Positions 45,397-48,851 of a DNA stretch of 64,000 nt are shown one piece after another. The notes under the pieces were generated by a model. That model ran no database searches. It worked only from the letters and a program-made list of their open reading frames with translations, and was not told where the DNA came from. The stretch is from positions 3,808,001 to 3,872,000 of the forward strand of contig NZ_JAQNDL010000001.1 of assembly GCF_028368995.1 (NCBI RefSeq). The letters run 5' to 3'. The DNA is from Nannocystis bainbridge (GTDB taxonomy: Bacteria; Myxococcota_A; Polyangia; Nannocystales; Nannocystaceae). A program made the position numbers and the translations under genes. Position 1 is the stretch's first letter. The number at the start of each line of letters is the position of its first letter.

Positions 45397-46050
45397 ATGC
45401 GGGCCGACGATCCGCCGGGAGACTTCGCGCGGGTCCGCGAGCTGCTTCAGGGCGCGCCCTTCACCTCGCGGCCGCGATCCGTCGTCACGACGATGCTGCG
45501 CGTCCTGTTCACCGGCGACACCGACACCGAGATCAGCGCGCGCGGGTTCACCGTCAGGTTCATCGGCGGCCGCACCCTGTCGTACGTCACCGAGCCGGCA
45601 GCGGCCACGCTGCACGTGCTGCTGAGCCGCGCGAACATCTGTCCTCGAGGACAGCCGCTCGCGTTCCGCCTCGCCGAGGAGGACGGCCACGCGCTGGTGG
45701 GCTTCGCCGACGCCGCGCGCTGGGTGTGGATCTTCCCTGGCGACGATCTGGTGCTGGTGTCGTTGCGCCGGCCGACATGCCCCGGACCGCCGCCCGCCGA
45801 TCTCCCGCCGCTGCCGCTGCCGACGCCGGTCAAGAAGCTCTACGCCCACCTGGCGCTGCCGCTGCCGTGCCCGTGTTGCGGTCGCTCTGCGACCGTCTAT
45901 CGCGCGGCCCCGGATGCGTGGATCTGCGGCGACCCGCGTTGCGGGCGATCGTTCAGCCCGCCGCAGCGGACCCGCGCGCTCGCGGAGCTGCGCGAGGACG
46001 CTGGCGTCGTCGTGCGCGAGTCGAGCGCCCGCCCGAAGATCTACCGCTGA
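45397..46050 (+). CDS. Hypothetical protein with possible Zn-ribbon
   Basis: Starts 1 bp after upstream stop; CPCCG ... CGDPRCG. Confidence 0.5.
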   Translation: MRADDPPGDFARVRELLQGAPFTSRPRSVVTTMLRVLFTGDTDTEISARGFTVRFIGGRTLSYVTEPAAATLHVLLSRANICPRGQPLAFRLAEEDGHALVGFADAARWVWIFPGDDLVLVSLRRPTCPGPPPADLPPLPLPTPVKKLYAHLALPLPCPCCGRSATVYRAAPDAWICGDPRCGRSFSPPQRTRALAELREDAGVVVRESSARPKIYR

Positions 46051-46060
46051 CGAAAAAGGC

Positions 46061-46190
46061 GGGTCGCGACGAAGTTCGAAGTGACATTTTACCACGCGCT
46101 CTACCAGGCTGAGCCACCGCCCCGAAGGGCGGGCTGGATTCGAACCAGCGACCTCGTGGTCCCTTGTAGTCACTTCGGCATTCGCGACCC
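46061..46190 (-). ncRNA. Y RNA-like unit 7 (YrlA-type, permuted tRNA-like domain)
   Basis: GGGUCGCGA/UCGCGACCC terminal stem; CGAAUGC..GACUACA; T arm GCUGG-UUCGAAU-CCAGC; acceptor CCGCCC-UUCG-GGGCGG; D arm GCUC-AGCCUGGUA-GAGC. Confidence 0.88.
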
Positions 46191-46200
46191 TGAAGAAGGC

Positions 46201-46267
46201 AGCTGCGACGAGAAATCGGCGAGACGTGCGTCGTGAAAGGATGTAGTCCCGCCAAGCATTCGCAGCC
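46201..46267 (-). ncRNA. Y RNA-like unit 6 (short, no tRNA domain)
   Basis: GGCUGCGAAUGC..GGCGGGACUACA..GUCUCGCC..UCGUCGCAGCU. Confidence 0.75.
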
Positions 46268-46277
46268 AAAGATAGGT

Positions 46278-46410
46278 GGACCTCGACGAAAGGTACGGAG
46301 ACATTCGTGCTCTACCGGGCTGAGCTACCGCCCCGTGGAGATGGAGCGGGTCGGATTCGAACCGACGACCTCGACATTAAAAATGTAGTCCCCGCGGGCA
46401 TTCGAGGCCC
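46278..46410 (-). ncRNA. Y RNA-like unit 5 (YrlA-type)
   Basis: GGGCCUCGAAUGC; T arm GUCGG-UUCGAAU-CCGAC; acceptor CCGCUCC-AUCUCCAC-GGGGCGG; D arm GCUC-AGCCCGGUA-GAGC. Confidence 0.88.
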
Positions 46411-46437
46411 AAAACGGTATGTGTGCACAGAGAAGGT

Positions 46438-46572
46438 GGACCCCGACGAGGGTCGAAGAGACGTTTACGCGCTCTGCCGCTGAGCTACCGCCCCGTACGA
46501 GTGGAGCGGGCTGGATTCGAACCAGCGACCTCGATCCCTGGAAGATGTAGTCTCTCCGGGCATTCGGAGTCC
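46438..46572 (-). ncRNA. Y RNA-like unit 4 (YrlA-type)
   Basis: GGACUCCGAAUGC; T arm GCUGG-UUCGAAU-CCAGC; acceptor CCGCUCC-ACUCGUAC-GGGGCGG; D arm GCUC-AGCGGCA-GAGC. Confidence 0.88.
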
Positions 46573-46596
46573 AAAAGCCGGGTGTGAAGAAAAGGT

Positions 46597-46732
46597 GGGC
46601 CTCGACGAGGGATCGAAGAGACGAACTGCGGTCCGCTCTACCGCTGAGCTACCGCTCCATGGGTTCGGAGCGGGCCGGATTCGAACCGACGACCGTACCG
46701 TTAAAATGTAGTCCCCTCGGCATTCGGGGCCC
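46597..46732 (-). ncRNA. Y RNA-like unit 3 (YrlA-type)
   Basis: GGGCCCCGAAUGC; T arm GUCGG-UUCGAAU-CCGGC; acceptor CCGCUCC-GAACCCAU-GGAGCGG; D arm GCUC-AGCGGUA-GAGC. Confidence 0.88.
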
Positions 46733-46755
46733 GAAATCGTCGGGCGTAAAAAGGT

Positions 46756-46881
46756 GGGCTTCGACCAGGTGTTGAAGAGACATACGGGCGTTCTACCCCT
46801 GAACCACCGACCCTCGCGGGCCGGGCCGGACTCGAACCGGCGTCCCCCTTTGGAATGTAGTCCCTTCGGCATTCGAAGCCC
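46756..46881 (-). ncRNA. Y RNA-like unit 2 (YrlA-type)
   Basis: GGGCUUCGA/UCGAAGCCC; T arm GCCGG-UUCGAGU-CCGGC; acceptor CCGGCCC-GCGA-GGGUCGG; D arm GUUC-AGGGGUA-GAAC. Confidence 0.85.
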
Positions 46882-46890
46882 GAAGAAGGC

Positions 46891-46955
46891 GGCTGCGACG
46901 AGGGTGGGCGAGACATCGTCAAACCAAGATGTAGTCCCGCCCTGCATTCGCAGCC
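46891..46955 (-). ncRNA. Y RNA-like unit 1 (short, no tRNA domain)
   Basis: GGCUGCGA/UCGCAGCC and GGGCGGGAC/GUCUCGCCC stems; CGAAUGC and GACUACA motifs; begins 14 nt after the rsr stop. Confidence 0.78.
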
Positions 46956-46969
46956 AAGGTTTCAGGCGT

Positions 46970-48523
46970 TCACAGCGTGACCGCCTCGATCGCGCGGACC
47001 CAGTGCTCGCCCGCGAGGCCGCCGCGCGCGAACGCGGCGATGAGTGAGAAGACGTCGTCCGAGAAGCCGCCGACGTTGAGGATGTCCTTTCGGTCAGGCG
47101 CCTGCGTGGTCGCCCCCGGCTGGATGTCGATGCAGACCAGCTTCGCCGCGGGGTTGCGGCCCTTGTAGGCCCGCCACTCCTCCATCACCTGGGTCCCGCG
47201 CCGGTACGTGTTGCGGGTGTCGATCCACGACTCGTTGTCCGACACGAAGATCACCAGGTCGCCCTTGGCCTTGCGGCGGTTCAGCTCCTGCAGGGGCGCC
47301 GCGCAGTTGGTCCCGCCGGACGGGAGCTTCGCCAGGCGCTGCGCGTTGGTGAGGACGCTGTCGTGGCCGTCGATCTTGCACGGCACGACCTTGTCGTGGA
47401 ACGGGATCACCTCGGTGTCACGGTTCTTGCGGAGGAACGCCGCCGCGACCAGGGCCGCCGCGTCGATGCACCGCACCGCCGAGGTCGCCCCCTTGCGGAA
47501 CCCCGTGGCCGGGGAGTGCATCGATCCCGAGACGTCGAGCAGGACATAGATCTGGCCCTCGACCTCGGGCACGTTGGTGAGCGCCGCCTCCATGGCGTCG
47601 TGGAGCGCGTCCCGGATCTTCTTCGGGATGGCGTCGTCGGCCTGCTTGTAGGCCATGAGCAGCTGGTACGGGAACACCCGCGCCTTCCGCACCTCGTCGG
47701 GCGACGCCAGCTTCTTGGCGAGCGCCTTGGTGAGCGTCGCGTCGTCGAAGACGCCGTGACGCAGGAAGGTGTTGAGGTTCATGCGCAGCATCTGCCAGCC
47801 GGCCCGGGCGGCGATGGCCCGCCACGCGCTCTCGCGCAGCGGCGTCCCGGTGAGCAGCTGGAACGGCACGTCCGGGACCTCGTCGGTGCGGCCGGCCTTG
47901 AAGTCCTCGAAGGCGCGCACGCACGCGGGCAGGGCCGCGGCGTCGTGCGGGCGGCCGAGCAGGTAGCCGTAGAGGGCCCGGCGGCCGTCGTTGGCCGGCT
48001 TGGGGTGGACCATCCGGACCACGTCCGTCAGCGACGGGTCGTTGCCGACCGAGTCACCGAGCACCTGCGCGTCGCTGCGGCGGTCGAGCCACCGCTGCAC
48101 CAGCCGCTTGGGCCGCGTCCCGAACGAACGCCGACCCGTCGCCCCCGACCGCACGATCTGCACGAAGTTGCGCAGCATCTTGCCGTTGTCGCACACCCGC
48201 CCGAACACCTTGTCGAGCATCAACCCGTTGCGGCTCGCCAGCTCCGCCAGGAGCAGCGCCGGCATGTCCTTCATGTGGCTGTGCTGCCGGGTGTACACGG
48301 CCGTCTTGGCGACGAACTCGGCGTCGACCTTGGCGACCAGCGCCTGCACCGCCTCGAGCTGCTTCTGACCGGACGCGTAGTAGGTGTTGTTGAGGCAACC
48401 GGTCGCGGCGTACTGAGCCAGCGCGTGCTTGTCGCTCAGGGCGTACGCCCGACCCCCTGCCTCGTTCACCGCGTCAGCGACGGGAGCGGCCTTGCGGGTG
48501 GTGAAGATCGAGAGGTTGACCAT
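46970..48523 (-). CDS. rsr: Ro60-related TROVE-domain RNA-binding protein (Rsr)
   Basis: NEAGG.AY, LAQYAATGC...TYY, LRMNL, ARVFPYQ, VWA MIDAS DVSGSM, GGT, SDNESW; AAGGAG RBS 6 nt before ATG at 48523. Confidence 0.93.
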   Translation of the reverse strand: MVNLSIFTTRKAAPVADAVNEAGGRAYALSDKHALAQYAATGCLNNTYYASGQKQLEAVQALVAKVDAEFVAKTAVYTRQHSHMKDMPALLLAELASRNGLMLDKVFGRVCDNGKMLRNFVQIVRSGATGRRSFGTRPKRLVQRWLDRRSDAQVLGDSVGNDPSLTDVVRMVHPKPANDGRRALYGYLLGRPHDAAALPACVRAFEDFKAGRTDEVPDVPFQLLTGTPLRESAWRAIAARAGWQMLRMNLNTFLRHGVFDDATLTKALAKKLASPDEVRKARVFPYQLLMAYKQADDAIPKKIRDALHDAMEAALTNVPEVEGQIYVLLDVSGSMHSPATGFRKGATSAVRCIDAAALVAAAFLRKNRDTEVIPFHDKVVPCKIDGHDSVLTNAQRLAKLPSGGTNCAAPLQELNRRKAKGDLVIFVSDNESWIDTRNTYRRGTQVMEEWRAYKGRNPAAKLVCIDIQPGATTQAPDRKDILNVGGFSDDVFSLIAAFARGGLAGEHWVRAIEAVTL

Positions 48524-48548
48524 GACGGGCTCCTTGTCAGACCCCTTG

Positions 48549-48564
48549 AGCAGGCATCGGACCG
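48549..48564 (-). promoter_or_regulatory. Candidate sigma-54 (-24/-12) promoter of rsr
   Basis: CGGTCCGATGCCTGCT = GG-N10-GC; predicted TSS just upstream of the RBS. Confidence 0.55.
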
Positions 48565-48851
48565 TGACCATGATGGCTTGCTGGATCTGCGTCATTCCGC
48601 GGAGTTGAATGGCTTTGCCCGGGGAAGAATGCAGCTTTGTTCTTATCCTTTGCTATCTACCGGTAGACGACCGTCGCGCGCGCGGATGAACACATGTCTC
48701 TTGGGTCACCTCGCATCGCACGCACGTCGACGCCTGCAGACCGCGGAGCACATGTCCTCCGAGACAGCCGGTCGCGCGTTGGGTTCTCGGATGTCCCTCG
48801 GGACAGGCCTGCGTCGCGCTACGCCTGACCTTCGAGACAGCTCGCGGAGCG

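Follow-up and report, generated by a model that had tools for sequence, protein, structure and literature searches.

Can the Y RNAs of a bacterium carry the acceptor end of an alanine tRNA, and what would become of such an end in the cell? The question is raised by seven tandem Y RNA genes in a stretch of 64,000 nucleotides (nt) from Nannocystis bainbridge (contig NZ_JAQNDL010000001.1, positions 3,808,001 to 3,872,000; hereafter the window), whose G+C content is 72.8%. The genes lie on the minus strand from 46960 down to 46060, directly downstream of and co-oriented with rsr, the gene of a Ro60 orthologue, and comprise five YrlA-type units, which contain a permuted tRNA-like module, and two YrlB-like units. 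The elements by which alanyl-tRNA synthetase (AlaRS) identifies its substrates include G1-C72, G2-C71 and A73 besides the wobble pair G3:U70, and this is the set that we find in the acceptor stems of units 4 and 5. Judging from its distribution among related arrays and loci, this alanine-type acceptor end is very probably a selected feature of the RNAs.

In unit 4 (46437-46570, minus strand, Rfam YrlA 58.2 bits) the T arm (46510-46526) is followed by the 3' acceptor strand CCGCUCC (46503-46509), by the loop ACUCGUAC (46495-46502), whose first base is A73 (46502), and by the 5' acceptor strand GGGGCGG (46488-46494), so that the whole 7-bp hairpin extends over 46488-46509. Unit 5 (46277-46408, minus strand, 59.6 bits) has the same two strands (CCGCUCC at 46343-46349 and GGGGCGG at 46328-46334, hairpin 46328-46349) around the loop AUCUCCAC (46335-46342) with A73 at 46342. 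In tRNA numbering both stems read G1-C72, G2-C71, G3:U70, G4-C69, C5-G68, G6-C67, G7-C66 and A73; the 8-nt loop is pyrimidine-rich and begins with A73, and the 5' acceptor strand is followed by UA and then by the D arm. Unit 3 (46596-46730, minus strand, 50.9 bits) has a 7-bp hairpin as well (46652-46673), formed by CCGCUCC (46667-46673) and GGAGCGG (46652-46658) with G73 (46666) and the loop GAACCCAU. In their minimum free energy (MFE) folds, units 3-5 form the T hairpin and an acceptor hairpin of 7 bp whose 8-nt loop is unpaired. All of this agrees with the sequence-only reading that preceded this analysis, which had numbered the units in the order in which they are transcribed and had described the alanine set in units 4 and 5, the stem and G73 of unit 3, the 8-nt open loops of units 3-5 and the GCGA and UUCG caps that seal units 2 and 7.

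That reading had also proposed to check whether G3:U70 is conserved in homologous arrays, and we did so in 12 genomes of the same family with rsr products 60-94% identical (tblastn). Eleven of the 12 contain at least one hairpin with 7/7 pairs that reads GGGGCG(G/A)/(C/U)CGCUCC and has A after it, so that free variation of the wobble pair is not seen; the exception (G012) has AGCUGAC/GUCAGCU, and one genome (G018) has an Ala-type module without rsr in its locus. Around the fixed stem, loop length varies between 6 and 19 nt and the loops differ in sequence, and the T stems have changes in both strands (GCUGG/CCAGC, GUCGG/CCGAC, GCCGG/CCGGC, CCCGG/CCGGG, CUCGG/CCGGG, CCUGG/CCAGG, GUUGG/CCAAC). 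Five close relatives (G001, G003, G005, G007, G010) have multi-unit arrays that echo much of the layout found here: GCGA seals the first YrlA unit of G001, G003 and G005, and that of G010 has a 6-nt loop (that of G007 was not read), and after it come a G73 unit, one or two Ala-type units and a sealed last unit. The contrast of sealed and open modules within one array is thus a conserved one, in that the orthologues of unit 7 are always closed by a tetraloop (UUCG, UCCG, GCAA or UCGC) on stems whose length varies from 4 to about 9 bp, while in the same arrays every Ala-type unit has exactly 7 bp. The suggestion that open loops mark the Ala-like modules did not hold up, since other modules also have loops of 6-15 nt.

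A second sample was assembled without regard to acceptor sequences, by choosing 80 rsr loci on metagenome contigs solely for the similarity of their protein, with the alignment of the window's Rsr and six homologues as query; it represents one Rsr subfamily, 53-66% identical to the window's protein. Modules were located by a regular expression for T arm, hairpin and D arm in fixed 7-nt windows, and were kept when 7/7 positions paired, the loop had at least 3 nt and neither arm lay in a tRNA called by ARAGORN. From 151 raw matches 87 were dropped, and removal of two duplicates from the remaining 64 left 62 unique modules in 44 loci, all of them on the rsr strand. A G:U pair with G on the 5' side is present at 3:70 in 22 of these 62 modules, and at positions 1, 2, 4, 5, 6 and 7 in 3, 2, 8, 4, 0 and 1, respectively (22/62 against 18/372 cells elsewhere, Fisher p about 1e-10, a value overstated because the sequences are related and not independent). 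A73 accompanies G3:U70 in 19 of 22 modules and is present in 12 of the 40 others (p about 4e-5, overstated for the same reason). The full set G1-C72, G2-C71, G3:U70 and A73 is found in 19/62 modules and in 17 of the 44 module-bearing loci, on 10 acceptor stems whose 5' strands are GGGGCCG, GGGGCCA, GGGACCG, GGGGCUG, GGGGCGG, GGGAUCG, GGGGUCG, GGGACUG, GGGCCUG and GGGCCCG. One subgroup of the metagenomic loci (L240, L245, L249, L251, L252, L253) is recognisable by 7-nt loops of the form A-N-C-A-G-A-C, in which position 74 is A, U or G and CAGAC is fixed; its arrays hold a second recurrent module, (A/G)CCGGAG/CUCCGG(U/C) with C or U at 73, between or after the Ala-type units.

When 44 distinct Ala-class modules from all sources were aligned, the first three pairs were invariant because the sequences had been chosen for the set, but further down the stem two-sided changes occur at 4:69, 5:68, 6:67 and 7:66 in 11, 3, 26 and 5 sequences, and three pairs of the T stem covary. 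As far as this alignment tells, the modules have a fixed helix top and a free bottom, as in tRNA-Ala genes, and the comparisons together show, at the level of sequence, selection on the top of the acceptor helix, on the discriminator base and on the length of 7 bp. Next to the stem, N-1 is a pyrimidine in 41/44 modules and A in none, and N-2 is a purine in 40/44. The loops measure 6-23 nt across the class; in four of the 44 modules the loop opens with an encoded ACCA, and in the other 40 CCA is not encoded. These ACCA-starting loops (in L060, a record of Inquilinus limosus, and in L105, L261 and L015) follow directly after the 7-bp stem, which is how a ready-made tRNA 3' end would look.

How far the feature extends was examined by a pattern scan over one genome per species, which gave at least 126 matches in at least 120 stretches; the pattern required G3/T70, for which reason the scan is used just for spread and for N73 and not for frequency. 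Among the matches listed, 95/126 have both arms in ARAGORN tRNAs (mostly tandem tRNA genes), and rsr-linked Ala-type hairpins are found in records titled Pyrinomonadaceae, Bryobacterales, Planctomycetota, Steroidobacter, Inquilinus and others. By record title, the rsr-linked modules among these listed matches belong to Acidobacteriota, Planctomycetota and Alpha- and Gammaproteobacteria, and N73 is A in 10 of the 12 rsr-linked hairpins listed. The feature is not universal: actinobacterial modules are mixed, and in mycobacteriophage ET08 the acceptor arm of YrlA is long, closed and not Ala-like.

Could the host mature such RNAs? Its genome encodes the RNase P RNA (type A), two genes of the PolyA_pol family whose products are candidate CCA-adding enzymes, and one AlaRS, as well as a normal one-piece transfer-messenger RNA (tmRNA) outside the window. 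Neither the three canonical tRNA-Ala genes nor the tmRNA gene encodes CCA, and tRNA-Ala cgc, tRNA-Ala tgc and the tmRNA gene read A-C-U from position 73 on, as the loop of unit 4 does. With 3' ends so alike and without CCA, the machinery that matures them could act on the units too. The units share with tRNA-Ala G1-C72, G2-C71, G3:U70, G4-C69 and A73, and differ from it in having no anticodon arm, a permuted order, an acceptor end that is closed in the DNA, and T and D loops unlike those of the host tRNA-Ala.

Unit 3 had been likened to tRNA-Asp, since the acceptor end of E. coli tRNA-Asp matches GGAGCGG with G73, so that this unit might be an aspartate mimic beside the alanine-type ones. The host's own tRNA-Asp(GUC) reads GGGGUGG/CCGCCCC-G, however, and the module has no anticodon, on which the identity for aspartyl-tRNA synthetase largely rests. 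The acceptor arm of unit 3 is identical in G001, and in G005, G007 and G010 the orthologous unit is GGGGCGG/CCGCUCC-G; with a G3:U70 stem in the orthologues of three relatives, unit 3 seems to derive from the Ala-type stem by a change of G3 to A. Its stem and G73 recur, moreover, in an odd host tRNA that is called as Ser(GGA). We therefore consider an aspartate mimic extremely unlikely; of the earlier interpretation the alanine identity stands, with the set present and conserved, and the tRNA-Asp reading of unit 3 is not supported.

Unusual tRNA genes were observed at further places in the host. Two stretches (G000:C3:526095-526309 and G000:C5:153032-153200) contain between them a pair of adjacent tRNA-Ala-like genes with mismatched acceptor stems (GGGCUCG/CCUGUCC and GGGGUCG/CUUCUCC) and a cluster of three odd 'tRNA-Ser' calls, one of them with the acceptor end of unit 3, GGAGCGG/CCGCUCC-G. 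Outside the window, at G000:C2:2556665-2559163, ARAGORN calls about 25 tRNA genes in 2.5 kb, many with atypical arms, including three tRNA-Asp variants and several odd acceptor ends; this array looks mobile or phage-type.

The closest precedent is the YrlA of M. smegmatis, a Y RNA bound by Rsr whose permuted tRNA-like module has an acceptor stem of 7 bp. According to the main text of Chen et al. (2014, RNA 20:1715; PMC4201824), most of it is found in vivo as two halves, of 82 nt (5') and 65 nt (3'), the 3' half begins at the expected RNase P cut, the 5' half has received a CA by which its CCA is completed, and the same site is cleaved in vitro by E. coli M1 RNA; the authors describe it as the sole one of three tested RNAs with a 7-bp acceptor stem. 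Units 3, 4 and 5 combine a 7-bp acceptor stem with a 5-bp T stem, as that text stipulates for an RNase P substrate of the M. smegmatis type, and the processing it describes is the route proposed here. The M. smegmatis locus differs in that a single YrlA and a single YrlB stand there upstream of rsr; the seven units described here, sealed and open ones mixed, lie downstream. The YrlA of Salmonella Typhimurium (RF02553; 10.1101/312249) has the same Ro-binding stem, T arm, acceptor stem-loop and D arm, but its acceptor stem of 6 bp is closed and uncleaved, and in this it is like units 2 and 7 and unlike units 4 and 5.

A charged two-piece RNA has a precedent in permuted tmRNA. The third acceptor pair of tmRNA is described in passages of PMC3985003 as a fully conserved G-U and a potent AlaRS determinant, AlaRS as suited to an RNA without anticodon, and the permuted precursors as probably opened by RNase P and tRNase Z. 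Two-piece tmRNA shares with the units the order of T arm, 3' acceptor strand, loop and 5' acceptor strand as well as G3:U70 and A73, and, as these passages have it, it is opened into two paired pieces that AlaRS charges without an anticodon. Rfam tmRNA models touch units 4 and 5, though on T arm and acceptor only and below their gathering scores: tmRNA_permuted gives 23.9 bits for unit 4 and 24.3 bits for unit 5 (gathering 47), and cyano_tmRNA 26.5 bits for unit 5 (gathering 70), both matches of unit 5 lying at 46326-46366. The units, of about 130 nt, differ from two-piece tmRNA in that they lack a tag reading frame, pseudoknots and an SmpB-type replacement of the D arm, and carry a Ro60-binding stem. 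In circularly permuted tRNA genes (Soma et al., 2007, as cited in 10.1101/312249), a closed acceptor loop is likewise opened by RNase P and/or RNase Z, but these precursors are in addition spliced on the anticodon side into a one-piece tRNA, a step that is not expected for the units.

On this basis we propose that RNase P would cleave units 4 and 5 on the 5' side of G1, that the 3' side would be trimmed to A73 and that a CCA end would be built there by the CCA-adding enzyme, the two halves staying joined by the Ro-binding stem and the tRNA-like core. The free acceptor end would then be recognised, and probably charged, by AlaRS, as is the case with tmRNA; the enzyme can suit such RNAs because it needs no anticodon. 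Units 2 and 7 would stay intact behind their tetraloops, so that one array would yield closed and openable Y RNAs. To the whole chain, from the cut to two-piece Y RNAs that are CCA-tailed, recognised by AlaRS and probably charged, we would give an even chance.

Several observations weigh against this proposal. The DNA shows the acceptor arm closed, and CCA is absent after A73 in unit 4 (A-CUC) and unit 5 (A-UCU), for which reason the genes are classed here as carriers of the identity set and not as AlaRS substrates. The full set is missing from 43/62 metagenomic modules and thus marks a subclass and not YrlA in general; the modules were found with an expression of our own making that requires canonical T-loop and D-arm motifs, and the relatedness of the sequences, which inflates both p-values, counts here as well. 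Some units combine G3:U70 with G73, and the D loop has C20 or U20, so that it differs from E. coli tRNA-Ala, where G20 is presumably a minor identity element. A listing of sequencing runs over window positions 46000-47000 contains no RNA run; its six rows have shares of 0.04-0.05, and the runs compared with the stretch (X1-X4) gave contigs of relatives that are 85-99% similar and are probably DNA. Finally, the main text of PMC4201824 states that no cleavage of Salmonella YrlA or D. radiodurans Yrn1 was seen, and mentions aminoacylation as possible while judging it unlikely to be general.

The same hairpin might serve without ever being opened. In that case the alanine-type helix, with G3:U70 in the minor groove and A73 in the loop, would be a docking site by which AlaRS or another protein that binds tRNA-Ala or tmRNA is tethered to Ro60 with no charging involved, as befits RNAs that are known tethers (other Y RNA modules tether PNPase) and of which the Salmonella YrlA stays closed. 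The absence of an encoded CCA from 40/44 modules would fit such a role, and so would the loops that are conserved in subgroups: ACUCGUAC is identical in the genome studied here (G000), G001 and G003, and A-N-C-A-G-A-C is common to eight modules of the metagenomic subgroup, which is also what an intact, bound loop would look like and hence speaks against cutting. Across the class, however, loop length varies between 6 and 23 nt, and four loops open with ACCA. A 7-bp stem, an unpaired N73 and N-1 and a pyrimidine at N-1 are hallmarks of RNase P substrates; the strict 7 bp, the unpaired N73/N-1 and the pyrimidine at N-1 in 41/44 modules are therefore traits of such a substrate rather than of a docking helix. 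The M. smegmatis YrlA with its 7 bp, moreover, is cut and CCA-tailed in vivo (PMC4201824, main text). We regard docking without charging as unlikely.

It is also conceivable that the RNAs are cut by RNase P and receive their CCA, but are not aminoacylated, the end serving to protect a two-piece RNA from exonucleases and G3:U70 being kept for helix geometry or for a processing or modification enzyme. Protection is the role proposed in the main text of Chen et al. (PMC4201824), but it leaves unexplained why G:U is enriched specifically at 3:70 (22/62 against 0-8/62 at the other positions) and why G3:U70 occurs together with G1-C72, G2-C71 and A73 on 10 different stems, a pattern of tRNA-Ala and tmRNA; we hold this explanation to be rather improbable. 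A further possibility is that the end has no function at all, being the relic of a gene similar to tRNA-Ala or tmRNA or homogenised with such a gene by gene conversion, with G3:U70 and A73 undecayed. Indeed the acceptor of host tRNA-Ala(CGC), GGGGCAG/CUGCUCC-A, is one base pair off units 4 and 5, and these two are paralogues. Yet the T loop is UUCGAAU, where all three canonical tRNA-Ala genes of the host have UUCGAUC, and GGGA is missing from the D loop; the G:U pair is still there at 60% Rsr identity and in different phyla, with two-sided changes in neighbouring pairs and T stems, and a single U-to-C transition, which would stabilise the pair, is not seen in the class. A mere relic thus seems very improbable to us.

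Cutting and CCA addition are already known for one Y RNA, whereas the alanine set, its conservation and the mixture of sealed and open units appear to be undescribed as far as we searched. Nowhere in the main text of PMC4201824 do alanine, alanyl, wobble or discriminator occur, and the structure preprint 10.1101/312249 has neither alanine nor wobble nor G-U; PMC12135203 makes no mention of YrlA, aminoacyl or tRNA-like. In the searchable literature, which leaves subscription reviews on bacterial Y RNAs outside its scope, no paper joins YrlA with alanyl-tRNA synthetase, and those listed that contain both YrlA and alanine seem irrelevant to judge from their titles and abstracts.

The gene at the head of the array, rsr (46970-48595, minus strand), encodes 541 amino acids with matches to the Pfam families vWA_Ro60 (2.4e-22) and TROVE (1.2e-08). 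Against the NCBIfam model RNA-bind_Rsr the product scores 91.1 bits, under the model's equivalog cut-off of 900, and in an alignment it is 51-58% identical to six rsr-linked homologues from several phyla. The array starts 10 nt past the rsr stop codon on the same strand, and the two are presumably co-transcribed. Besides units 3-5 it consists, all on the minus strand, of the YrlB-like unit 1 (46886-46960; Rfam YrlB 18.4 bits, a weak match), which has the CGAAUGC stem (CGAATGC at 46944-46950) in an MFE stem-loop and is without a tRNA-like module; the YrlA-type unit 2 (46755-46879; Rfam YrlA 65.5 bits), where the MFE fold gives GGGUCGG/CCGGCCC sealed by a GCGA tetraloop (46807-46824); the YrlB-like unit 6 (46198-46267; 27.4 bits for Rfam YrlB, whose gathering score is 97; CGAATGC at 46256-46262); and the YrlA-type unit 7 (46060-46188; Rfam YrlA 74.5 bits), whose 6-bp acceptor stem is sealed by UUCG in the MFE fold. 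All seven units have CGAAUGC in the 5' strand of a terminal stem that forms in the MFE folds. The motif fits the Ro60-binding motif GNCGAAN0-1G given in the main text of PMC4201824, and the terminal stems are putative Ro60-binding stems. Units 2, 3, 4, 5 and 7 have the module order T arm, acceptor hairpin, D arm, with GGUUCGAAUCC T arms and UAGCUCA...GAGC D arms.

The five YrlA-type units match Rfam YrlA (RF02553) over its full length (model positions 1-114, E 5e-17 to 3e-10), the longer acceptor loops appearing as insertions in the model. Unit 7 alone is above the gathering score of 69 bits, units 2, 5, 4 and 3 lying below it with E 2e-14 to 3e-10, and the 11.05 Mb genome has no YrlA matches besides these five. 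ARAGORN calls no tRNA and no tmRNA within the window. A gathering-level Rfam 'tRNA' match at 46666-46813 spans units 2 and 3 and was rejected as an artefact of the tandem kind, and so were YrlA matches below about 45 bits in the relatives and the phylum, most of which join the T arm of one tandem tRNA gene to the D arm of the next; since many lie inside ARAGORN tRNAs and occur in the E. coli and B. subtilis controls as well, they were not counted.

A promoter and terminator scan gave no promoter-like and one terminator-like site, not above shuffled sequences. Units 2-5 are each directly followed on the minus strand by (G/U)CCACCU and a U-rich run, e.g., GCCCACCUUUUU and GUCCACCUUCUC, at 46752-46757, 46593-46598, 46434-46439 and 46274-46279; these sites, missed by the consensus terminator scan, may represent a shared signal for 3' processing or termination. 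From the other side an open reading frame of 217 amino acids (45397-46050, plus strand) converges on the end of the array. Its G+C content at third codon positions (0.88) agrees with a real gene; in the DNA its C-terminal part reads as having two CxxC pairs that are zinc-ribbon-like, and no Pfam or NCBIfam match was obtained.

Genes for rsr or TROVE proteins often stand beside dense tRNA arrays. Among the metagenome loci, L246, L258, L263, L267, L280, L293, L302, L304 and L308 have 7-15 ARAGORN tRNAs each, and two loci of phylum genomes (L212 and L213) have 14 and 26 tRNAs within 10 kb; they resemble phage tRNA clusters beside Ro-like genes such as that of ET08. A homologue of the window's Rsr is encoded in 360 phage records, mostly of phages of Mycobacterium (207) and Streptomyces (123). 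That of Myxococcus phage Mx1 (OR576727.2), with 45% identity over 96% of its length, has a tRNA-Gly and a peptidyl-tRNA hydrolase gene nearby; near the Mx1 rsr the regular expression found no module. A phylum-wide scan for TROVE gave a match in 24/401 genomes and missed the genome studied here at E 1e-5. In the 24 flanks (up to 10 kb) the expression found YrlA-type hairpins solely within tRNA arrays, and the scan thus provides no useful denominator. The primer printed in the M. smegmatis paper matches 6 of the 401 genomes with 3 mismatches, about the rate of the reversed control, and no module was found there.

What does the alanine-type end mean for Y RNAs at large? That a widespread subclass of bacterial Y RNAs matures to two-piece, CCA-tailed and alanine-charged RNAs is a generalisation that we consider improbable. 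Even if the units should turn out not to be charged, a strictly conserved wobble pair with A73 would still mark a specific binding site. Which partner the tRNA-like module of Y RNAs might have has been a question since 2014, and the conserved alanine set, together with the traits of an RNase P substrate, names AlaRS as a concrete candidate and turns the loose idea of a possibly aminoacylated Y RNA into a directly testable lead. If the generalisation is true, these RNAs would be a third kind of cellular AlaRS substrate beside tRNA-Ala and tmRNA, and a charged end would enable the Ro60-Y RNA particle to engage EF-Tu or ribosomes, by which, for example, Ro60 and its nuclease partners might be brought to stalled or damaged ribosomes or the activity of Ro60 be tied to the state of aminoacylation. 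Arrays that mix chargeable and sealed Y RNAs would provide for both modes at once. If the units are charged, surveillance of RNA by Ro60 would be linked to the translation apparatus as tmRNA is, which would explain why sealed and openable Y RNAs have been retained side by side.

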